Position numbers and translations under genes: made by a program. From positions 1,936-65,935 of IMG/VR virus record IMGVR_UViG_3300031949_001708: a DNA stretch of 64,000 nucleotides; one strand, written 5' to 3'. Below the pieces are notes generated by a model. The model did not search any database, was not told the DNA's origin, and saw nothing but the letters and a program-made list of their open reading frames with translations. This DNA comes from a virus. Its lineage: Duplodnaviria > Caudoviricetes. Shown piece after piece: positions 5,352 to 51,686 of this stretch (its first letter is position 1; the number at the start of each line of letters is the position of its first letter).

Positions 5352-5610
5352 GAAGGAGGCTCGTTGCTCTGCCTGCCAGCGCGCTGTCATCTGGACCATC
5401 TCTCCGGCCGGCGCACGTCTCCCGCTGGATGCCCGGCCGATCATGGTCTACGCGATCGACTACACGGCCGACGGACCGCGGGCCGTGAGGGCGACGTCCG
5501 TCTACTCGGCCGAGGCGGCCGTCGAGCTGCTCGGCCCACTGTATATCAGCCACTTTCTCACGTGTCCGAGCGCTCGGGACTTTTCCGGCGGGAAGAAGAG
5601 GGCAGACTGA
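5341..5610 (+). CDS. Small Zn-binding phage protein
   Basis: CxxC near N-term, HFLTCP near C-term. Confidence 0.6.
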   Translation: MSNRKEARCSACQRAVIWTISPAGARLPLDARPIMVYAIDYTADGPRAVRATSVYSAEAAVELLGPLYISHFLTCPSARDFSGGKKRAD

Positions 5611-5867
5611 TGGACCTTCAGCGCGTGAAGTCCAGCAACATCGAAGCCGTCGGGCACGAGGGCGAGATGCTCGTCGTGCGGTTCCGCGGCGGCGCGACGT
5701 ACGAGTACGAGGCCGTTCCGGCGGCCGTGGCGGACGAACTCCTGCGCTCCAAGTCCGTCGGCTCGGCCTTCGACCGGCTCGTGCGGAAGGCGAGCTATAA
5801 GTACCGGAAGGTGCCGCCGGAAGAGGCGAAGGGTCACGCCATCATTGTGGAGCCGGAGCCGTCGTGA
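5610..5867 (+). CDS. KTSC domain protein
   Basis: VKSSNIEAVGH..L.VRF..G..YEY..VP......L..S.SVG..F. Confidence 0.85.
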   Translation: MDLQRVKSSNIEAVGHEGEMLVVRFRGGATYEYEAVPAAVADELLRSKSVGSAFDRLVRKASYKYRKVPPEEAKGHAIIVEPEPS

Positions 5868-6100
5868 TGGCGGCCGACGGGGAATGGCGCGGCGTGTTGG
5901 CCGCGCAGGACGTGGGCCTGAAGCGGCTACGCGACGCGCACACCGCCCTGGCGCTCCACCTCGAACAGCATGCCGCCGGTCTGGCGGACGGCTGCCATCC
6001 GGCCGGCGTCGGTCCCGGTTGCCACGAGCTCCGGGGCGCGATTCGCGAGGCAGTCGGGGCGCTGCGTGCCGTCGGTGAATTCGTCGCGGGAGGATGGTGA
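5864..6100 (+). CDS. Hypothetical protein
   Basis: Translationally coupled ORF. Confidence 0.5.
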   Translation: MMAADGEWRGVLAAQDVGLKRLRDAHTALALHLEQHAAGLADGCHPAGVGPGCHELRGAIREAVGALRAVGEFVAGGW

Positions 6101-6690: not shown

Positions 6691-7115
6691 TGGAGGACCT
6701 CAAGGCTTGGCTGGAGGCTGGCGAGGTGCTGTGCGAGGAGTGCGGCACCGGGATGGCGGAGATCCTTCACTATCCGGGCTGCCCGAAGGCGTCGGCCGCG
6801 CTGGCCGCGCAGGAGGCGGCCCTGGCGGAAGCCGGATGGGTCGCGTTGCCCAATGACGACATCTCTCGCGATCTGCAGGCCCAGGGCTTCATCGACTACC
6901 GCTGGTTCGCCTCCTCGCCTTTCGCCGTCCTGGCGCTGGCAAAGCGGGGGAGCCGCCGCGACGATTGGGGCGCCTACATCGCGGGTGTGCCCGCGGGCGC
7001 GGACCTGGACCACGCGATCCTCCTCGTCTGGGGCTCGGCGGCAAAGCTCTCGGAGCGCCAGGCGGCCGTCCTGTTTCCGAACGTCGTGGCGTTCGGGCTG
7101 ATCTATCGGCAGTGA
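6690..7115 (+). CDS. Hypothetical protein
   Basis: TGATG coupling; CxxC. Confidence 0.55.
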   Translation: MEDLKAWLEAGEVLCEECGTGMAEILHYPGCPKASAALAAQEAALAEAGWVALPNDDISRDLQAQGFIDYRWFASSPFAVLALAKRGSRRDDWGAYIAGVPAGADLDHAILLVWGSAAKLSERQAAVLFPNVVAFGLIYRQ

Positions 7116-7525: not shown

Positions 7526-7764
7526 CGCACGTCTGCGACGCGCGCTGCTTCCTGCCGCCGGACGCGACGCCGGCGGAGCGGCGGGAGCACGAGACGTTCG
7601 CCGAGGCGTGGGATCGGGATGAAGCTGCGTGGCACGGGCGGGACAAGGACGAGCGAGCGCGGCGCCTAGCTGCCGCCTTGCCGCGCGTGCTGGCCCAGAT
7701 GGCGGGCCGCCCGGGCTCGGCCTTCATCCAGGACGTCGAGGACCGGCCCTGGTGGCGGTCGTGA
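7522..7764 (+). CDS. Hypothetical protein
   Basis: GTGA overlap with upstream stop; its stop abuts array 1. Confidence 0.5.
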   Translation: MTHVCDARCFLPPDATPAERREHETFAEAWDRDEAAWHGRDKDERARRLAAALPRVLAQMAGRPGSAFIQDVEDRPWWRS

Positions 7765-8240
7765 GCGAGCGGTTAGGCGATGGAGAACGGTTGGGGACTG
7801 GCGAGCGGGCAAGCTCTAGAGAACCGAAGGCCTGTGGCGAGCGGCCTGGAACTGGAGAACGGGAGAAGGCTGGCGAGCGGCAAGTCGATGAAGAATGGGC
7901 AGGCCATGGCGAGCGGAGAGCTGCTGGAGAACGGTGGGGACGTGGCGGGCGGTCAAGCAATGGAGAACGGACACTCAGTGGCGGGCGGCGGGCCTCTGGA
8001 GAATGGGTGTTGTATGGCGAGCGGAGAGCGGATCGGGAACCATAAGAAACTGGCGAGCGGCAAGCCGTCGGGGAACGGTTGACAACTGGCGAGCGGTACT
8101 CGGCTGGAGAACGGGGTAGAGCTGGCGAGTGGAGGCGGGATGAAGACAGGAACGAGAATGGCGAGCGGATCAGGAGTGGAGGCCGGCGAAAAGGTGGCGA
8201 GCGGTCCGTCGATGTAGAACGGTTGAGGGATGGCGAGCGC
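7763..8240 (+). ncRNA. TIGR-like dual-repeat array 1 (13 x 36 nt)
   Basis: Alternating TGGCGAGCGG and TGGAGAACGG separated by variable 8-mers, strict 18-nt spacing. Confidence 0.9.
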
Positions 8241-8298: not shown

Positions 8299-8550
8299 AT
8301 GGCCATCACGGATCGGGACCTGTCGGAAGGGACGCGCCTCGTGGCGCGCTACAAGAAGCAGACGTTCGTCTGCACGGTTGAGAAGGAGGCGATCGGCGGG
8401 AAGCTGGCGTTTGTCCTGGAGGACGGGCGGCGCTTCAAGAGCCCGTCGGCGGCCGGGTCGGCCGTCATGGGGAACATCGCGTGCAACGGCTGGCGCTTCT
8501 GGTCGGTCGAGGGCGAGGCGCCTGCGGCCGGGCCCGGGGCGGAGGCGTGA
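8299..8550 (+). CDS. RAMA/DUF4357-like small DNA-binding domain protein between arrays
   Basis: L.A.YK...G..FKSPSAAG..V.G...NGW.FW motif; GGAGGTGG RBS. Confidence 0.7.
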   Translation: MAITDRDLSEGTRLVARYKKQTFVCTVEKEAIGGKLAFVLEDGRRFKSPSAAGSAVMGNIACNGWRFWSVEGEAPAAGPGAEA

Positions 8551-16483: not shown

Positions 16484-18892
16484 ATGGTTGCGAGGAACGG
16501 CGCCGAGGTAGCGGAGGCACTGGCCGAAGCACAGAAGGGCTTTGACGAGCGCACGGCTCGCCGGTCCGTCATCGAGCCGCGCACACCCGAAGAAGGACAC
16601 TTCGCACCCGGTTACGACCTCGGCAACCTCGTCCTGTGGGTCGGGCAGCAGGCAGACGAGATCGAGGCGTGGGGCCGCAACGTCAAGCGCCGCGACCGCC
16701 AGCTGCGGGAGTTCATCCCGACGGAGAACGTCGTGGCGGCGGCCCTCGGGACGGTCGTGGCGCGCAACGCCGCCTTCGACTTCTCCGTCAAGGGCCCGCC
16801 CCGCACGGCCGCGCGGGTCCACGACATCCTGGAGAACGCGAACAACGGTAAGGGCTGGATCGACTTCATCGCGAAGCTGTCGTACGACCTCTACAGCCAG
16901 GACAGCGGCGCGTTCTTCGAGATCCTGCGGGAGGGCGACTCCGAGACGGCGCCACTGATCGGCGTCAACCACCTCGACGCCTCCCGCTGCTGGCACACGG
17001 GTATCCCGCAGGAACCGGTGCTTTACCAGGACCGGCTCGGCCGCTACCACCTGATGAAGTGGTATCAGGTCCAGACGTTGGCGGAGCTGCCGGCGCCGCA
17101 CGAGACGCTCTACGGGCTCCAACTCTGCGCCCTGACGCGGCTCCTCCGAGCCTGCCAGATCATCAAGGCGGTCAACCAGTACAAGTACGAGAAGGTCTCG
17201 GGTCGCCACACCCGCGCCATCCACTTCATCCGCGGCGTCCCGACGCAGCAGATCAACGCCGCCCTCGCGCAGATGCAGATCCACGCCGACCAGGCGGGGC
17301 TGTCGAAGTACCTCCAGCCCATCATGATCGGCACGGTCGACCCGGCCGTGGACCTCCAGACCGCCACGATCGAGTTCCTCAGCCTGCCGGACGGGTACGA
17401 CGAGGAGACGACGTTCAAGCACTACATCAACCAGATCGCGCTCGCGTTCCTCGAGGACTACCAGACGTTTGCGCCACTCCCGGGCGGCAACCTCGGCACG
17501 AGCGCCCAGAGCCAGATCCTGCACCAGAAGGGCCAAGGCAAGGGCCCGGCCCTCTTCATGAAGTTGATGTCTACGGCCTTCAACCAGAACGTCATGCCGA
17601 AGAACGTGGAGTTCGCGTGGGAGGAGCAGGACGTCGAGGCGGAGAAGAAGGAGGCGGACGTCCGGGCCGTGCGGGCGACGACACGGGCGGCGAGGATCGC
17701 GTCCGGCGAACTCACGCCGGAAGTGGCGCGCCAGATCGCGAAGGACGAGGGCGACCTCGACGGCGCGTACCTCGATGCGCTGGGCCAGGAGGACGTGACG
17801 GAGGACGTGGAGCTGGAGGACGACCGGCCGACGGAGGCGCAGATCGAGGAAGACGAGGCAGGAGGGGCGGGAAGCCTGTCGGCCCAGCCGGCGCAGCAGG
17901 GCCCGACGCCGGAGCAACTTCAGGCCGTGGCCGACGCGATCAAGGCGCTCTCGCCCCTCCTCCTCCGCAACGTGGCGGAGGGCCGGAAGGTCCAGCTCGG
18001 GGCCTTCCTCCAGACACGCATCCACCGCGCCTTCACCACGGCGGCGGACGACCTCGCGGCTCTCGGCTACATGGACACGGCTGGCCGCATCCAGCTCTCC
18101 GGCATCATCGGCGACACGCTCGGGACGTTTGCCCGCCTGGTGGACGAGGAGGCGGCTGGAATCGCGCTGCAGGAACTTGACCGCCAGGACGTCCGGGAGC
18201 TGGTGGAGCAGGCGGCCAAGGCGCTGGACCATCGTGCCACCGGGATGGAGACGGCCGCAGAACGCGTGCCGATGGAGGAGGAGGTGGCGGGGAAGCTCAG
18301 TCCTGTTCTCGAGTTCCTGCGTAGCCGTATTCATCGGCAACTCCGCGCCGTACCGGGCAGGAAAGCCCGCCCGGGCGACGATGCCGTCAGTGAGGCGTTG
18401 GGGGAGGTCGAGGAAGTGCTGCGCTTGGCAGTCGATCAGCGTGTAGCTCACGCGGTTGATGAGGCAACGGCCGACATTCCCAACCCGACGGTCATTGCGG
18501 AGATCATGCGCGAGGCGTTGGTCCAGAACGCACGCGAGCTGCGGCAGTTCCGGGACGTCATAGGCCGCGAGGTTGCGGACACGCTGAAGGATGCGAGAGT
18601 GCAGGCGGAGGATGTGGCGGCATCAGTGGCGGACCTGCGAAAAGCTGTAACAGCCCAGCAACAGAGTCGGGCGCTCGTGCCCCTGGTGCGCGATCTCGTT
18701 GCCGCGACCCTGAAAGAGGCGCCACCTCGCCCTACGCCCGGGTCAGAGCGGCGCCGAGCCGAGTACGGCGAGGATGGGAAGATCCGCCGCGTCGTCGTCG
18801 AGGCGGGTGACGGAACCCGGACGGCGATCGAGGTCAGGCGCGACGAGACGGGCAAGGTGGTCGAGACGTTCCAGCACCCGGACGAGACCTAG
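16484..18892 (+). CDS. Portal protein with long C-terminal extension
   Basis: Follows terminase; GW..F...DL..QDSGAFFEI.R..HLD; ~460-aa core plus ~340-aa helical tail. Confidence 0.8.
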   Translation: MVARNGAEVAEALAEAQKGFDERTARRSVIEPRTPEEGHFAPGYDLGNLVLWVGQQADEIEAWGRNVKRRDRQLREFIPTENVVAAALGTVVARNAAFDFSVKGPPRTAARVHDILENANNGKGWIDFIAKLSYDLYSQDSGAFFEILREGDSETAPLIGVNHLDASRCWHTGIPQEPVLYQDRLGRYHLMKWYQVQTLAELPAPHETLYGLQLCALTRLLRACQIIKAVNQYKYEKVSGRHTRAIHFIRGVPTQQINAALAQMQIHADQAGLSKYLQPIMIGTVDPAVDLQTATIEFLSLPDGYDEETTFKHYINQIALAFLEDYQTFAPLPGGNLGTSAQSQILHQKGQGKGPALFMKLMSTAFNQNVMPKNVEFAWEEQDVEAEKKEADVRAVRATTRAARIASGELTPEVARQIAKDEGDLDGAYLDALGQEDVTEDVELEDDRPTEAQIEEDEAGGAGSLSAQPAQQGPTPEQLQAVADAIKALSPLLLRNVAEGRKVQLGAFLQTRIHRAFTTAADDLAALGYMDTAGRIQLSGIIGDTLGTFARLVDEEAAGIALQELDRQDVRELVEQAAKALDHRATGMETAAERVPMEEEVAGKLSPVLEFLRSRIHRQLRAVPGRKARPGDDAVSEALGEVEEVLRLAVDQRVAHAVDEATADIPNPTVIAEIMREALVQNARELRQFRDVIGREVADTLKDARVQAEDVAASVADLRKAVTAQQQSRALVPLVRDLVAATLKEAPPRPTPGSERRRAEYGEDGKIRRVVVEAGDGTRTAIEVRRDETGKVVETFQHPDET

Positions 18893-24078: not shown

Positions 24079-24324
24079 TTGGTTCTCTCGGCATGCCGAG
24101 CAGAAGGAGTGTCGACATGGCGCTGGCGGCGGTGGCGGCCGAGACGATGCGGGCCCAGCAGCGATACCCGCGCCGTCCTCCTTGAAGAGGTCGAGGAGCT
24201 GTGGGAAGTGGTGCGAAACCACCACGCCGGCGTCGACGACGAGCAGGGCATGAAGCTGCGGCTTCGCGCCGAGGCGATCCAGGTCGGGGCCATGGCCCTT
24301 CGCATCATCCTGGAGTTGACGTGA
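24079..24324 (+). CDS. Hypothetical protein (MazG-like helical pattern possible); start uncertain
   Basis: AVLLEEVEELWE.V...EA.QV.AMALR. Confidence 0.5.
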   Translation: MVLSACRAEGVSTWRWRRWRPRRCGPSSDTRAVLLEEVEELWEVVRNHHAGVDDEQGMKLRLRAEAIQVGAMALRIILELT

Positions 24325-24524
24325 TGGAGGATTGGCCCTTGGCTCTCTGGGCACTCTACGCCAAGGTCGATCTGTACTTCGCCCAGATGAAGGCCATGGG
24401 AATCGGCCGCGACCGCGCCGGGGAGCTTGCGGAGGGAGAAGTCGCTATCGCTCGGACCCTTCCGGGCCGGTCGGACCCCTTCCGGCGCATCCTTGAGGCA
24501 GTAGCGCGAGGGGATCTGACGTGA
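24324..24524 (+). CDS. Hypothetical protein
   Basis: TGATG coupling. Confidence 0.5.
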   Translation: MEDWPLALWALYAKVDLYFAQMKAMGIGRDRAGELAEGEVAIARTLPGRSDPFRRILEAVARGDLT

Positions 24525-24718
24525 CCTGCCCTGGCTGCGGCCGCGACCTCTGGGTCTGCACGGATCAGGCGACGGGCGACTACTACTGGTGCCCGGCGTG
24601 CCACCGGCGCTATTCACCCCAGGCCGACTTCATCGTTGAGGCGAAGGCGCGGTCGCTCGTGGCGGCGAAGGCGGCCGCCCAGCTCGGGCAGAGCCGCCTA
24701 CCGTTCAGGCTGGAATGA
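24521..24718 (+). CDS. Zn-ribbon protein
   Basis: CPGC..CPAC. Confidence 0.55.
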   Translation: MTCPGCGRDLWVCTDQATGDYYWCPACHRRYSPQADFIVEAKARSLVAAKAAAQLGQSRLPFRLE

Positions 24719-24731
24719 AAGGAGAAGCCGT

Positions 24732-25049
24732 ATGAACCTGCGGGACATCGTCGAGGTGCGCCAAGTTGGGCTCCAGCGAGCCAACGACCTGCTCGAGGCG
24801 GGCTACCACCTCCTCGCCATCGACCAGACGACCCAGGGCGTCGAGCGGGAGCAGAAGGAGGGCGAAGCCATCGGCGCGTCCTTCTTCGTCGCGAAGCGCC
24901 TGGAGTACGTCATCGGTCGGACGGCTGAGCAGCGCCCGATCATCGACCTGCTGCGGCAGTGGAACGACGAGCGCCGGCTGAAGAACGAGCAGTGGCGGGC
25001 AGACGCGGAACGGCGAGCCGCGACGACGGAAGCGGAGATTACGACGTGA
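24732..25049 (+). CDS. Hypothetical protein
   Basis: AGGAG RBS. Confidence 0.55.
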   Translation: MNLRDIVEVRQVGLQRANDLLEAGYHLLAIDQTTQGVEREQKEGEAIGASFFVAKRLEYVIGRTAEQRPIIDLLRQWNDERRLKNEQWRADAERRAATTEAEITT

Positions 25050-25273
25050 ACGCGCCCAGCGTCTCGGCCAGCGACATCAACCGCTGCCCAAACCATAGCC
25101 TCGTGCCCCAGCACTACCGGGACAACGGCGTCTGCGCCTGCTTCCCGGACGTGGTGGCGGATCTGCTCGTGGGGGCGCGCGCCTTCGCGGTCGAGATGCG
25201 GGTTGCGGGCATGAAGGGCACGGTCGTGCTCGAGTGGGGCGACCGCACGCTCCTGGACGTCGTGATCGACTGA
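25046..25273 (+). CDS. Hypothetical protein
   Basis: GTGA coupling. Confidence 0.45.
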   Translation: MNAPSVSASDINRCPNHSLVPQHYRDNGVCACFPDVVADLLVGARAFAVEMRVAGMKGTVVLEWGDRTLLDVVID

Positions 25274-25455
25274 TGAAGGCGACGCCATGGGTCGTGGTGG
25301 GGCCGGAGCCGGACCTCGCGTCCTGCACGCGGTGCCGCGACCGCCTGCCGAAGCCTAGCCTGCCAAAGCCCCTCGGAGCGTTCGGGCGCTACATGCAGGC
25401 ATTGGGGATTGTATACCACACGCTAGGCTGTGGTAAGATGGCGGTGCCTCGGTGA
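25273..25455 (+). pseudogene. Small Zn-binding ORF apparently truncated by an IS-end sequence at 25404
   Basis: MKATPW..CTRC.. runs into GIVYHTLG, the same peptide read from the IS right end at 51558. Confidence 0.45.
25404..25434 (+). mobile_element. Solo copy of the IS1595 right terminal inverted repeat
   Basis: GGGGATTGTATACCACACGCTAGGCT, 26/26 identical to reverse complement of 51533-51558. Confidence 0.85.
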
Positions 25456-26114
25456 GGCAGCTTGTCTTACTCATAGCGGCGGTGGTGGTGATTCTATTGC
25501 CGGACGATGGCGGCAGCTTCTGGGACTTCAACGTAATTGAGTTGATCACGCTGATTGGCGTGGTGATGGGTCTTGTGGGCGCGACCATCCGCTGGGCTCG
25601 GAACAGATATAGACGTCCTGTCCAGATACGTTACCTCATACCCAAAGAGAAATATACGCTCCGTGAGTTTCCAGGAGCCAATCGACAGGAAACCTTGGCT
25701 GATAGTTTGCGGGTCGGCATAGGAACCTATCAACTGCTGTTCCAAGTGCAAGTCATGCGAGAAATCGACGTGCTATCTGCCAATCTACGCTTTGTTGGCA
25801 ACGGAGCGGAACATCTCACCGATGAAGGCCCCAACAACCTCTTCATAATCGACCGCGAACCTAGTGACTCCGTGTCGCTACCGCGTTTTCAGAATTGGCA
25901 CGGTGAGTGGCAGAATCCTACCGGCACGACTTGGCTCACAGGAGAGCCGCGTATGCTAGGCCATAGAATAAGGATCAGCGGACCATTTATAGGTCACCTG
26001 ATTTGGGTACTACGCATCAAAGGCCGCCACAAACCCTTTGAGCAACAGTTGGCACTCACTGCTCACGGCGGCTCCCAAGACGATGTGCCGTTTCTCAGGC
26101 TGGCAACTGTTTAG
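25452..26114 (+). CDS. Low-GC membrane-anchored cargo protein
   Basis: Two N-terminal hydrophobic segments; codon usage unlike phage genes. Confidence 0.7.
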   Translation: MRQLVLLIAAVVVILLPDDGGSFWDFNVIELITLIGVVMGLVGATIRWARNRYRRPVQIRYLIPKEKYTLREFPGANRQETLADSLRVGIGTYQLLFQVQVMREIDVLSANLRFVGNGAEHLTDEGPNNLFIIDREPSDSVSLPRFQNWHGEWQNPTGTTWLTGEPRMLGHRIRISGPFIGHLIWVLRIKGRHKPFEQQLALTAHGGSQDDVPFLRLATV

Positions 26115-26154
26115 GAATGAGTTCCTTGTGCTCCAGCGTGTCAGCTAGGACGAG

Positions 26155-26430
26155 TCACTTGAACGCCTCTTCGCACCAGTCCAGGTTGCGGTTGATCTCC
26201 GCCCGCGTGAGGTTCGGATGGCGCTCGACCGCAGTTCGGCAGTCCCGCATGGATGGAATGCCGATAATGAAGATTCGGAATCCAGCGCGTGAGGACCACT
26301 CCTGCGTCCCGACCTTGGCCTGGTCAACCCACTCCTGCGTCCCGACCTTCGCCTTGGGACCGGAGTCGCCGCAACTGGCAGCCACAAGCGCAGCGACTAG
26401 AATGGCTGCGCCAAAGAATTGCCTAGACAT
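26155..26430 (-). CDS. Small lipoprotein
   Basis: Signal peptide with VAASC lipobox; GGAGG RBS; AKVGTQEW duplicated. Confidence 0.75.
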   Translation of the reverse strand: MSRQFFGAAILVAALVAASCGDSGPKAKVGTQEWVDQAKVGTQEWSSRAGFRIFIIGIPSMRDCRTAVERHPNLTRAEINRNLDWCEEAFK

Positions 26431-26592
26431 GCTGACACCTCCCTCTCGGGATTATCGGCATGAGCTAGCTGATCAACTCTTGGTGCGGAGGCGCCACCCA
26501 TCCCTTGCACCTGCTCGCTCGACGTTGGCCCGGCGGTGCCACCGGACTACATGGAGGTGTTGCGCCGGGCCTGCAGGGCGCAGCACTAGCGC

Positions 26593-26693
26593 CGGCGAGC
26601 GGTCTCGCGATGGAGAACGGTTCAAGGATGGCGAGCGGCAACATAGTGGAGAACGGGGCTTCAGTGGCGAGCGGGACAGGCGATGGAGACGAG
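26593..26693 (+). ncRNA. Orphan TIGR-like mini-array 4 (2 complete units + partial)
   Basis: Same two repeats, 8-nt spacers; 26611-26638 identical to 10319-10346. Confidence 0.8.
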
Positions 26694-27116
26694 TAAGGGC
26701 TGATGGGAGCCTTCGACGAGCCGCCCGCGCCGGATGCTGGAAGTTCGATGCTGGGCCACTACGGCCTCGTCAACCCCATGATGGCGTGGCTCCTGCGCCG
26801 GCGCCCCGAACTTCTAGCCGAGACGCCGACGGAGTTCCGCACGCCCCTGCCTCCTCCGCCGCTCTGCGGCGTGCAGGTGGCCGTCAGCGACGGCTTCACG
26901 GAGCGGTGCCGCCGGACTTCCACACGGCCTGGCCGTGCTACGCGCACGAGCCGCCCGTCGTTCGGCAGATCCGGCGCGCCACGCCCGTGATGCAGCGAGG
27001 CGTCAACAGGTCGCTCGACTGGATGCTGGAGGCGACGCGGGAGGGCAAGATGCTGGATCTTGTGTTCGATCAGGGCGCGTGGATCGTGCAGGTTCAGACG
27101 CCAGAGGGGGAAACCG

Positions 27117-27719
27117 GTGGCTAGGCGTAAAGACGACTTCTACCAGACGCCGCAGTTCGCCACGATGGAGCTGCTAGACCGCATCTCCGTTCTCGGCTCC
27201 CGCGTGCTGGAGCCGTGCGTGGGCGACGGCGCGATCGCGAGCGTTCTACGGCCGCAGGCACGCGACGTCGTGACGGCCGACATCTCCTCCCGCCGGCGGG
27301 CTGACTACCACGCCGACGCCCGGCTGCCGCAACTCTACGAAGAGGTCGGGCGGGACCACGGCCGGATCGGCTGGATCATCACGAACCCGCCCTTCTCCTG
27401 CGCCTTCGACATCCTGCGCGAGGCGCTTCAGCACGCCGAGCTGGGCGTGGCGCTTCTGCTCCGCCTCTCGTTCCTCGAGCCGACGCTCGACCGCGGCGAG
27501 TGGCTCGCGCTCCACCCGCCCAGCCGCATGCTCGTGACGCCCCGCATCAGCTTCACGGGCAAGGGGACGGACTCCGTCACGACCGCCTGGATGATGTGGC
27601 CCGGCACGCTGATTCGTACCGGAGGCGTGCCGATGCTGCGGTCGTGCCCGCCGATCGAGGTCCTGGCGAAGGCGCGGGTCCCGAGCGAGCAGGAGACGCT
27701 GCTGGAGGTGCCGGTCTGA
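27117..27719 (+). CDS. Orphan N6-adenine DNA methyltransferase
   Basis: DFYQTP, VLEPCVGDG, ITNPPF, LLLRLSFLE, AWMMW. Confidence 0.88.
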   Translation: MARRKDDFYQTPQFATMELLDRISVLGSRVLEPCVGDGAIASVLRPQARDVVTADISSRRRADYHADARLPQLYEEVGRDHGRIGWIITNPPFSCAFDILREALQHAELGVALLLRLSFLEPTLDRGEWLALHPPSRMLVTPRISFTGKGTDSVTTAWMMWPGTLIRTGGVPMLRSCPPIEVLAKARVPSEQETLLEVPV

Positions 27720-48879: not shown

Positions 48880-49058
48880 CGTTCCTCCTTCGGCGTTTGG
48901 AATTGATGAGCAGCCTTCGCCGTTCGACCGCCCGCCCCAGCGCAGACGTCTGGACGTCTGCCTGCCGAGGCGCGGGGCCGTCCTCGAACCTAGCGATCTC
49001 GAGCTTGGTTCGCTTGGCCGAGAACCAGCAGTACTCGCATGTCTGGGGGATTATATAC

Positions 49059-49087
49059 TTGACACTAGGCTGAGAATCAGTTAGACT
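49059..49087 (+). promoter_or_regulatory. Inward promoter at IS left end
   Basis: TTGACA-17nt-TAGACT. Confidence 0.7.
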
Positions 49088-49250
49088 CATCTTGTGATGA
49101 GACAGGCTTCCCAACTTCAGGCTCTTTCTCATTCGGATCATCCTTCTCGTGGGCCACACGGTGTAGCTCGTCGCGCACTGGTTTCGGGAACAATTTCTTC
49201 ATCGCTTCTTCGGTCGTCCACTCGGTCGGCTTCTTCTTACGTCGCGGCAT
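49077..49250 (-). CDS. 57-aa ORF inside IS left end
   Basis: MPRRKKKPTEWTTEEAMKKLFPKPV...; GGAG RBS. Confidence 0.5.
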   Translation of the reverse strand: MPRRKKKPTEWTTEEAMKKLFPKPVRDELHRVAHEKDDPNEKEPEVGKPVSSQDESN

Positions 49251-49262
49251 AGGAGCACTCCC

Positions 49263-50156
49263 ATGAAAACAGCGGATATGAATGTGATGAAGCTAACGGA
49301 TTTGTTCCATAGTGACGAGCGCTGCCGTGCCTACCTTGAAGCTCTACGCTGGCCCGATGGCCTGGCATGCCTACGCTGCCAAAGCACCAAGATTTCGCGG
49401 AGCTACAAGCGCAACCAGTTTGTCTGTGATTCATGCGGCTACAACTTCTCCGTTACGGCTGGTTCCATCTTCCACGATACCAAGCTCGGCCTGCCCAAGT
49501 GGTTCATGGCCGTCTATCTCATGTGCGAATCGAAGAAAGGCATGAGCGCCAACCAGATGAAGAGGACGCTGGGCGTGTCCTACAAGACGGCCTGGTATCT
49601 CTGCCACCGCATCCGCGCCGCCATGAGGGATGCCAGCGTGGGGATGCTCAGCGGTATCGTAGAGGTTGACGAGACCTACGTCGGTGGCAAGGTGAGGGGT
49701 CGGGGCCGGGGCTACCGCGAGAACAAGACAATGGTGGTCGGCGCTATCCAGCGCGGCGGCAACGTTCGGCTCAAGGTCGAAAAGCGGGCTGACCGCAAAA
49801 CGCTCCACGCCTTCATCAAGGCATATGTGGGCGACGACGCCGAAGCGATCCACACGGACGAATGGCCGGCCTACTTGGGCATCGCCGACAAGAACACCCG
49901 GCACGAGACGGTCAACCACCGGCAAGAAGAATGGGTCCGGGCCGACGTTCACACCAACACCGTAGAGGGAGTCTGGTCGCTGTTCAAGCGCTCTATCGTC
50001 GGCTCGTACCATCAGCTTAGCGAGAAGCACATGGACGCCTACCTGGACGAGATGGCGTGGCGGTTCAACCAGCGTCACAACCCCTACCTGTTCCGCGATA
50101 CGTTGGTCAAGCTAGTAAAGGCCGAGACGCTGGAATACAAGTCGCTAATTTCCTGA
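49263..50156 (+). CDS. tnp: IS1595-family DDE transposase
   Basis: RWPDG..C..C Zn ribbon, VEVDETY, IHTDEW, VNH..E, HTNT.EG.W, YL.E..WR.N. Confidence 0.95.
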   Translation: MKTADMNVMKLTDLFHSDERCRAYLEALRWPDGLACLRCQSTKISRSYKRNQFVCDSCGYNFSVTAGSIFHDTKLGLPKWFMAVYLMCESKKGMSANQMKRTLGVSYKTAWYLCHRIRAAMRDASVGMLSGIVEVDETYVGGKVRGRGRGYRENKTMVVGAIQRGGNVRLKVEKRADRKTLHAFIKAYVGDDAEAIHTDEWPAYLGIADKNTRHETVNHRQEEWVRADVHTNTVEGVWSLFKRSIVGSYHQLSEKHMDAYLDEMAWRFNQRHNPYLFRDTLVKLVKAETLEYKSLIS

Positions 50157-50175
50157 CTCCTAAATGTCGCAACCA

Positions 50176-51495
50176 TCAAGATGAAGCCTTCTCAAGTACT
50201 TCGCGGGGCATTGGTATGTACTCGTTGTTCAAATCCAGGAAGGTCTTGAGGCCCTTCCTATCAATTCCGCCTGACAAGATTCTCACCTGATCGATCAAGG
50301 AATCGTGTCGCTTCACCCATTGGCCGATGGCTTCAAGGTCTGCCAACGTTCCGATCCTAGAGCTGTGCCATACGAATGCTCCGGCAAACAGGTAAATGCT
50401 GCAATATCGAATGAACGCGCCCTCTAACTCGGCAGGGCTTCCTTTGACTATGAGGTCCTGCACATTGCGTAGCGCCTCGCCATAATGCGGCTCGAACGCA
50501 TAATCCCTAAAGTACCTCGCGGACAGCCCTTGCCAGCCACCATTCGTGAAGCACTGGTCAAAGATCGCCTTGAGGACAGGACGGAGCGCATCAAAGGCAG
50601 GGATAGCGTAAGAATTGCACAATAAGACAAGTTGTTCATCTGGCGGTTCGGACTCGTTAACGGGTGTTGCCGATATGACAGCGAGAGGCGCGGCGCTCCA
50701 AATCTTCTCGAATGCACCCAAGAGACGCGAGTAAAGCGGGTCTTCTCTAAGAACCTTGAAGTTTGGCCGTTCAAGTGAAAACGGCGTCAGTACCTCTGCT
50801 CGAATTGAACCATCCCGTTCGTTCGGTTCGAGGATCGTCATGCCCAGGATGGGGCCGTCGAACCACCTGACCTCAACGTTGTGCGCCTGCGCTTCGCGGG
50901 TAGCTTGTTCAATTGTCTGTCTGAGATGGCTTTCAGTTTCGCCTGGTACAGCAGCCACTAGACTGGAGATCGTGTGACCGTATGGGTCTAGAAGCAAAGC
51001 CCGCTGAAACTGCGGCATCGCATAGAGTCCGTTAGCCCTGGCATACTCGCCAGCAATCCCCGTGTACCATACGCGCCTTGCTGCTCTTACTTCACCCAAG
51101 AGGCCACCGGTGGCGGTGTTCATCTCGGTGCGATCTCGAAAGAAGATCGGTGATAGCAGCGGAGCTTGGCTCCTGTTGTGGATGGGTTCGGGCTCATCTT
51201 GTAATTGCGTCGGTTCTTGTGGCTTAGTCTCTGAGGGGGCCTGTTCCAGTTCTATTGGCTTCTTCCCAACCCGATAGAGCCAATAGAGCCCAAGGGGTGT
51301 GAGCACAAGCCAGCCCCACTCGCCCGCGAAGGCGAAAACATCGGACGCACCTCGCTGCCAAAGTGACGCTAGGAAATCCAAGTCGCCGCCCCACTCGACA
51401 AGCTTGTAGGCCGGGGAGAAACCAGAGATAACCCATTGTGGCAGAGATTCTTTGCGGAGGTAGGGGCGGAGCCATTCAGGAACCCTAGAATCCAT
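50176..51495 (-). CDS. IS passenger protein, membrane-anchored, unknown function
   Basis: 439 aa, lower GC, N-terminal hydrophobic segment, within TIRs. Confidence 0.75.
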   Translation of the reverse strand: MDSRVPEWLRPYLRKESLPQWVISGFSPAYKLVEWGGDLDFLASLWQRGASDVFAFAGEWGWLVLTPLGLYWLYRVGKKPIELEQAPSETKPQEPTQLQDEPEPIHNRSQAPLLSPIFFRDRTEMNTATGGLLGEVRAARRVWYTGIAGEYARANGLYAMPQFQRALLLDPYGHTISSLVAAVPGETESHLRQTIEQATREAQAHNVEVRWFDGPILGMTILEPNERDGSIRAEVLTPFSLERPNFKVLREDPLYSRLLGAFEKIWSAAPLAVISATPVNESEPPDEQLVLLCNSYAIPAFDALRPVLKAIFDQCFTNGGWQGLSARYFRDYAFEPHYGEALRNVQDLIVKGSPAELEGAFIRYCSIYLFAGAFVWHSSRIGTLADLEAIGQWVKRHDSLIDQVRILSGGIDRKGLKTFLDLNNEYIPMPREVLEKASS

Positions 51496-51686
51496 CTCCT
51501 ACCAGCCTTTCTCGCTGGCAGTAGTCTACCATAGCCTAGCGTGTGGTATACAATCCCCCATGTCTGCTGGTCACTGAAGGGCCCCGGAGGCAGCGGTGTC
51601 TGCGAAATGATCTTCGTCGCGTTCTTTTCCACTATGGACCTCCTCCTTCACCGTCAGTATCGGCCGCCCTCGGCCAGCTCTGAAGT

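Follow-up and report, generated by a model that had tools for sequence, protein, structure and literature searches.

What is the short run of alternating repeats at 26593-26674 in this virus genome, and does it provide working guides to a Tas protein whose gene lies far away? The window examined here is a 64 kb stretch of a 65,935-bp IMG/VR virus record of soil metagenome origin. The first description of TIGR-Tas systems dates from 2025 (Faure et al. 2025, PMC12045711), and the initial annotation described the locus as an orphan mini-array of such a system. Our analysis identified a genuine two-guide TIGR array that belongs, as an ordinary member, to this known type of system.

Structure of the mini-array and the system it belongs to

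Direct reading of the register of 26593-26674 on the plus strand revealed two full dual-repeat TIGR units that are closed by an edge repeat, in the order CGGCGAGCGG-TCTCGCGA-TGGAGAACGG-TTCAAGGA-TGGCGAGCGG-CAACATAG-TGGAGAACGG-GGCTTCAG-TGGCGAGCGG. The 10-nt edge TGGCGAGCGG, the 10-nt loop TGGAGAACGG and the 8-nt spacers give an exact period of 36 nt. The first unit (26593-26628) matched the repeat pattern with one mismatch and comprises an edge, CGGCGAGCGG, whose first base departs from the consensus (26593-26602), spacer A TCTCGCGA (26603-26610), the loop (26611-26620) and spacer B TTCAAGGA (26621-26628). The second unit (26629-26664) was an exact match, with its edge at 26629-26638, spacer A CAACATAG at 26639-26646, loop at 26647-26656 and spacer B GGCTTCAG at 26657-26664, and the closing edge (26665-26674) forms the 3′ end of its guide. 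The array is off at a single base at its beginning and carries a full edge at its end, which is followed by a degenerate third unit (26675-26702) made up of the 9-nt GACAGGCGA and the loop-like TGGAGACGAG with no recognisable 3′ edge, running into the AAGGG/ATG start region of the open reading frame at 26703. Degenerate units are usual at array ends, according to Xu et al. (2026). A dual-repeat TIGR array is defined by alternating, distinct repeats of 8-12 nt, variable spacers of 8-12 nt and a period of about 36 nt (PMC12045711); the repeats, spacers and period of the mini-array all fit this definition.

Truncated edge repeats mark both ends of TIGR arrays (PMC12045711), and the arrays in the window and in three other contigs (L177, L001 and L182) start with ...AGCGG and end with TGGCGA.... 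Because these ends match the published rule, TGGCGAGCGG is read from the sequence as the edge and TGGAGAACGG as the loop, and on the same basis the initial annotation had named spacers A and B correctly. Box C/D-type nucleotides are expected on either side of each spacer in a dual-repeat TIGR array; each mini-array spacer is preceded by ...CGG and followed by UGG(A/C)GA, as in the main arrays. From the truncated edges, the likely cut falls between TGGCGA and GCGG, which predicts two mature 36-nt tigRNAs (26599-26634 and 26635-26670), each of the form GCGG-A8-loop10-B8-TGGCGA. A 36-nt product that is cut inside the edge repeat is described in PMC12045711 and by Xu et al. (2026).

The repeats were the same as those of the arrays flanking the Tas gene, as had been proposed. 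A search of the window for the edge-8N-loop pattern with ≤3 mismatches returned 32 matches, against 0.02 expected, all of them on the plus strand and confined to 7763-8240, 8790-8940, 10013-10666 and 26593-26674. These correspond to main array 1 (7763-8240, 13 units), main array 2 (8790-8940, 4 units, directly upstream of tasA), main array 3 (10013-10709, 18 units, which begins at the tasA stop codon and has a truncated edge last) and the mini-array. The three main arrays were delimited by the pattern scan and direct reading, and array 3 is followed by a terminator hairpin, GGCGGGGCAC/GTGCCCCGCC (10679-10698), with a T-rich tail. A model, R1, built from 32 main-array units with the mini-array excluded from training, recovered the mini-array at 41.3 bits (E 1.4e-11) over 26594-26638 and at 20.6 bits (E 4.5e-5) over 26646-26674, which places it among the best-scoring units of the window; outside the arrays, the next match in the window reached only E 0.088. 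The mini-array repeats are identical to the main-array consensus. Their perfection was considered as a sign of selection and rejected, as about half of the loops and 70% of the edges in the main arrays are also perfect and the difference is not significant. Between the end of array 2 and the start of tasA there is a further hairpin, CCTCCCG-GCGA-CGGGAGAGG (8949-8966), which L177 retains with a two-sided change at 5820-5840 (CCTCCTG-GCAA-CAGGAGAGG) and which may be a processing or translation element.

The gene tasA (8985-10019, plus strand) encodes a 344-residue protein that was characterized by profile searches, AlphaFold and Foldseek as a coiled coil and Nop domain with a Zn-ribbon insert and no nuclease domain. 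It matched TasR (PDB 9mty) with E 5.6e-12 as a single sequence and E 1.9e-30 as a family profile, and the family profile matched TasH (21kl) with E 3.7e-19, the alignments spanning residues 113-323 of TasR and 64-305 of TasH. The AlphaFold model had a pLDDT of 90.2, and Foldseek ranked TasR and TasH ahead of the IS621 recombinase. Pfam returned neither a Nop match nor a nuclease domain for this protein. Because the alignment begins past the nuclease domains of both solved proteins, with about 12 residues before the first long helix in the model, the product is classed on profile and model evidence as a nuclease-less Tas (TasA) with a Zn-ribbon insert. Its Tyr323 and His330 align with Tyr289 and His296 of SpTasH, and among 34 aligned homologues H330 is invariant and Y323 is present in ≥90%. 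In SpTasH, a dual-repeat Tas, this pair cuts pre-tigRNA in the edge repeat (PMC13421893), and by alignment the Tyr/His processing pair of dual-repeat systems is kept in the tasA product.

No second Tas gene was detected by tblastn in the 65,935-bp record. The mini-array lies 16,574 nt beyond the tasA stop codon, with at least 10 genes between them, including the terminase and portal genes, and so is not in the position next to tas in which arrays are usually found; such adjacency is a usual location and not a mechanistic requirement. As the initial annotation had proposed, this is a real TIGR array at a distance from its Tas gene, but the term orphan is too strong for a satellite of a complete system within the same genome. 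The initial annotation had also called for a search for further solo units, and a scan of the whole record found none. The best other candidate, located at G000:1424 and so not in the window, was a weak half-unit with 4 mismatches and nothing in register beside it. In the region around it (G000:C1:1374-1451) CGGCGAGCGG occurs twice at a spacing of 50 nt, together with a single weak loop-like 10-mer and again out of register with any neighbours, which is probably chance in coding DNA.

Genomic setting and relatives

The mini-array follows a non-coding leader (26431-26592); GC3 analysis gave no coding frame over 26431-26700. Upstream, a weak sigma-70-like match, CTGGCA-17-TAGAAT, was located at 26375-26403 (9/12, a consensus match only). 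Neither the leader nor the flanks of the mini-array were homologous to the main-array flanks, no terminator was found by scanning between the mini-array and the downstream genes, Rfam returned no match to the region and its predicted RNA fold was unremarkable (z = 0.04). Downstream and co-oriented with the array are an ORF without a family (26703-26990) and a DNA methyltransferase (27060-27719, PHROG 799, E 1.6e-36), both on the plus strand and supported by GC3 frames. Within 26700-27124 the GC3 signal shifts near 26850 from the frame of the 26703-26990 ORF to a frame ending at 27124, which could reflect two small genes that overlap, a frameshift or an error in the sequence. The phage encodes three DNA methyltransferases, of the MT-A70 (1716-2942), N6_N4 (10660-11994) and PHROG 799 types, together with a RAMA-domain protein (8299-8550); two of the three methyltransferases and the RAMA gene directly follow TIGR arrays, and the N6_N4 enzyme probably starts later than the ATG at 10660.

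The initial annotation had placed the array beside an IS-derived island, and this was borne out: a solo, 41-nt IS1595-type terminal repeat (25395-25435) and a lower-GC stretch (GC 0.598) lie just upstream, with the island 160 nt from the array. The solo repeat is 93% complementary to the right end (51527-51567) of a full IS1595-family element at 49044-51567, and the stretch comprises a membrane-protein ORF (25452-26114, plus strand) and a lipoprotein-like ORF (26155-26430, minus strand). No second IS end was found near the mini-array, and none abuts it. The full element, 26 kb from the solo copy that heads the two-gene island, has its left end at 49044-49072, a transposase gene (49263-50156) and a passenger ORF of 439 aa on the minus strand. 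Within the lipoprotein-like ORF, a 33-nt tandem duplication (26296-26354, 96% identical) repeats the peptide KVGTQEW. The possibility of a chimeric assembly, raised in the initial annotation as an objection, was made unlikely by a Logan contig of 3,644 nt, assembled from the source run, that spans 24208-27500 without a difference at a depth of 26.5, similar to its neighbours; this contig represents a second assembler, probably working on the same reads, and not a second sample. The one run found to hold this DNA is a DNA run, probably that of the source sample, and none is on record as RNA.

Arrays that stand apart from tas were also seen in relatives. L182 (ENA ERZ27247785 k141_1297907) carries a 7-unit dual-repeat array at 5610-5870, 4.1 kb upstream of its TasA homologue, with AAA_25 and HNH genes between the two, in addition to tas-adjacent arrays at 9494-9960 and 11362-12355. 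L178 (Logan SRR21686415_6580), a low-GC phage contig with a TasA homologue at 10001-10930, has 36-nt units (TTATGAWTAG / TTAAKRATAG) across 11245-17600 in five small clusters that are split by protein genes and extend up to 6.4 kb downstream of tas (12 pattern matches, 0.28 expected). L186 is a possible further case. From L182 and L178 it seems that splitting of arrays is regular in this clade. No separate arrays were found in G001 (52 kb covered), L177 (17 kb covered), L179, L180, L183 or L185.

A region homologous to the mini-array was found in none of the relatives. GenBank phages contained no relative by DNA or TasA protein, and IMG/VR contained none by TasA peptides or by the MuF-like neighbour; G001, the only IMG/VR contig with the same repeats, has nothing in common with the flanks of the mini-array. 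Among TasA relatives with some context the closest is L177 (82% identity), whose 20-kb contig stops short of the equivalent region; an 85%-identical relative is on a 2.6-kb contig. Relatives of the methyltransferase were ≤50% identical, the 13 homologous loci, scanned for tandem repeats of period ≥15, held no array, and an exact look-up of the methyltransferase protein gave nothing on record. Pattern scans of genome and metagenome collections returned mostly single matches in GC-rich genomes, which were treated as chance, with real arrays in only a dozen short metagenome contigs.

Half-guides shared between arrays

One half of the first mini-array guide recurs in main array 3. The 28 nt at 26611-26638, comprising the loop, spacer B TTCAAGGA and the following edge, are identical (28/28) to 10319-10346, within a sibling unit (10301-10346, plus strand) that was read directly as spacer A ATAGATAC, loop, spacer B TTCAAGGA and the next edge. 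The partner A spacers, TCTCGCGA and ATAGATAC, have 0/8 bases in common, and the spacers on both sides of the identical piece are unrelated. The initial annotation had described precisely this: an identical spacer B with both flanking repeats, next to an A spacer that differs. A position-specific composition model predicted 0.017 identical spacer pairs between mini-array and main arrays (4 by 70 spacers), and one was seen; across all arrays of the window, four were seen against 0.11-0.16 expected.

The sharing is not confined to this pair. A whole unit is duplicated between array 1 (7835) and array 3 (10517), and a second half-unit case in the window (8123/10589) shares spacer A and the first 7 bases of a variant loop. 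In L001, a related IMG/VR contig, units 3155 and 4343 have spacer B in common and differ in spacer A, and in L103 units 1330 and 1402 share spacer A and differ in spacer B. Over 15 loci there were seven identical same-type spacer pairs, compared to about 0.27 expected, and 4/7 were half-unit cases with breakpoints inside repeats; half-unit sharing recurs in three genomes. Unit mobility and combinatorial shuffling of A and B spacers had been proposed from the mini-array; the pattern of sharing is real and recurrent (8123/10589, 10301/26593, L001 3155/4343 and L103 1330/1402), while the process is a matter of interpretation. Possible causes are short-homology recombination, template switching, repeated acquisition or repeated selection of one half-site.

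The L177 phage shares no spacer with the window phage despite an 82% identical TasA, which points to fast turnover of guides. One L177 spacer B, TCGCGAGA (6945-6952), is the exact reverse complement of mini-array spacer A TCTCGCGA at 26603-26610; the chance of such a match is about 0.006 before allowing for multiple looks, and the sequence contains the palindrome TCGCGA.

To our knowledge, TIGR systems have no acquisition machinery. We put forward, tentatively and as a conjecture we consider rather doubtful as a whole, that TIGR arrays diversify without one by swapping repeat-bounded half-units within and between arrays, distant satellites included, so that combining 8-nt half-guides from a pool would create new 16-bp specificities. 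In such exchange the mini-array would be both product and partner, and it might bring its guides under a late-gene transcription programme that differs from that of the main arrays. How TIGR arrays originate and grow has been called an enigma (PMC12045711).

Possible roles of the mini-array

We favour, with a probability of roughly 0.55, the reading that the mini-array is a working satellite of the single TIGR-TasA system and gives TasA two more guides in trans. It would be read in a plus-strand transcript together with the 26703 ORF and the methyltransferase, from a local promoter or by read-through. A TasA dimer encoded 16.6 kb away would bind the alternating repeats, and its Tyr323 and His330 would cut inside the edge repeats to release the two 36-nt tigRNAs, each of whose 8-nt spacers would pair with opposite strands of a 16-bp DNA site. 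Since this TasA has no nuclease domain, the outcome would be binding and not cutting, with transcription or replication of the target blocked, and the two guides would add to roughly 35 from the main locus. Swapping of repeat-bounded pieces with main array 3 probably created the array itself or refreshed it. What the sequence shows directly is the anatomy, the 28-nt identity and a single Tas gene with conserved processing residues; that the array is transcribed, processed and loaded, how it acts and how it originated are all inferred here.

Several observations argue for this reading. Both full units have consensus repeats and the closing edge is complete, so nothing needed for two guides is missing. 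The array shares its strand and orientation with all other arrays and with the flanking phage genes, and it occupies a non-coding gap. Further points in favour are its recovery by R1, the placement of the one Tas protein in the family by sequence and fold with its Tyr/His pair conserved, the published processing by that pair and guide-dependent repression by TasA, the separate arrays of L182 and L178, and the second assembly across the site. Supply in trans, which the initial annotation had suggested, is inferred from the presence of one Tas gene and from published experiments in which Tas proteins were loaded by arrays or single tigRNAs that separate constructs expressed (PMC12045711). Against it count the weak promoter match and the lack of a terminator after the array, its two units and decayed third, the rearranged, IS-derived island 160 nt upstream, which would fit a by-product of rearrangement, and the failure to find a homologous region in any relative. 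A search for targets was confined to the phage's own genome, since a 16-mer is estimated to match public collections tens of times by chance; using all 38 guide pairs in both strand geometries with gaps of 0-2 bp and ≤3 mismatches, it gave no excess over four scrambled controls and no perfect site, and the mini-array 8-mers were not enriched in the phage genome.

A less probable but still serious explanation is that the locus is an inert relic, a piece of a TIGR array left or dropped by rearrangement, whose guides, if transcribed, would have no selected role. It could have come about when an IS1595-associated event next door deleted or inserted DNA, when a former second locus was lost, or through ectopic recombination with array 3. 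The small size of the array and its decayed third unit fit such an origin, as do the solo IS end and foreign, lower-GC island immediately upstream, the absence of satellites from the closest available relatives (G001 and L177), the missing terminator and weak promoter match, and flanks unlike the leaders of the main arrays. Undecayed repeats, intact boundaries, a near-complete first edge and a complete closing edge, all seen here, would seldom result from a random breakpoint; moreover, no IS end abuts the array, and the satellites of L182 and L178 suggest that split arrays are regular in the clade. We consider it improbable that the array acts chiefly in cis on RNA, as part of the 5′ leader of a transcript for the 26703 ORF and methyltransferase, where cutting by TasA would tie expression to the level of TasA and the guides would be secondary. 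The array ends 10-30 nt before the start of that ORF with no terminator between, arrays 1 and 2 also lie directly upstream of genes (RAMA at 8299 and tasA at 8985), and cutting of edge repeats by Tas is RNA cleavage. This argument is purely positional, 0/13 homologous methyltransferase loci are preceded by TIGR units, and the arrangement is compatible with a working satellite.

A coding peptide repeat (…LENG..MASG…), a chance match and an assembly artefact are together very improbable and were rejected. One frame does give MENGSRMASGNIVENGASVASG within a 63-codon ORF (26505-26696), which the 36-nt period keeps open. That ORF has no family match, it falls where GC3 gave no coding frame, whereas neighbouring genes have GC3 values of 0.84-0.96, and stops break the main arrays at about the rate estimated for random spacers. 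Chance is opposed by the 0.02 pattern matches expected, and an artefact by the second assembly, which crosses the site without a difference.

The mini-array most closely resembles the dual-repeat SpTIGR/TasH system of Salicola phage CGphi29. Both have alternating 10-nt repeats with two short spacers per unit and a 36-nt period (10 + 8 + 10 + 8, with 16 variable nt), carriage by a phage and a partner protein with a coiled-coil and Nop fold and a Tyr/His processing pair, and the one-base defect in the first mini-array edge may correspond to the incomplete edge with which such arrays start. They differ in that the partner here is a nuclease-less TasA and not TasH, in that the mini-array has two intact units where TIGR arrays typically have 5-15, and in that it is 16.6 kb from tas without a terminator of its own. 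The absence of a nuclease, the dual-spacer guide and DNA binding are likenesses to MbTasA (Xu et al. 2026, bioRxiv 10.64898/2026.09.09.750476) and PlTasA (Guan et al. 2026, bioRxiv 10.64898/2026.08.11.744272). PlTasA uses a stem-loop tigRNA (Guan et al. 2026), whereas the phage system is dual-repeat, keeps the Y/H loop and has a Zn-ribbon insert. According to Xu et al. (2026), TasA represses transcription in a guide-dependent and reversible way, and by analogy repression of this type is the likely mode of action here.

Guides encoded away from their protein are also seen in box C/D sRNAs and snoRNAs with Nop5 or Nop56/58, which have the same RNA-binding fold and scattered guide genes that act in trans (PMC12045711). 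Together with fibrillarin and L7Ae, guides of that kind, which adopt K-turns, direct the methylation of RNA, unlike the guides here, which are predicted to be released from a tandem array as 36-nt RNAs that target DNA. Another parallel is offered by orphan and virus-borne mini-CRISPR arrays, being short guide arrays with the repeats of a host system, located away from the effector gene and used in trans. Their architecture, protein family and targeting rule are unrelated to those of TIGR, in which two half-guides address opposite strands.

Neither the distal location nor the sharing of half-guides alters the view of how TIGR-Tas works. The occurrence of a spacer with unrelated partners, here and in two other genomes, does raise a testable idea, that dual-spacer guides diversify by half-unit exchange at repeats. 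Of the published surveys, that of Faure et al. (2025, PMC12045711) covered ±5 kb around tas and that of Xu et al. (2026) at most ±10 kb, and neither mentions orphan or satellite arrays; at 16.6 kb from tas, the mini-array is beyond this range. Guides can lie well beyond the ±5-10 kb windows used for cataloguing, so the guide repertoires of phages may be undercounted and whole-genome searches are needed.
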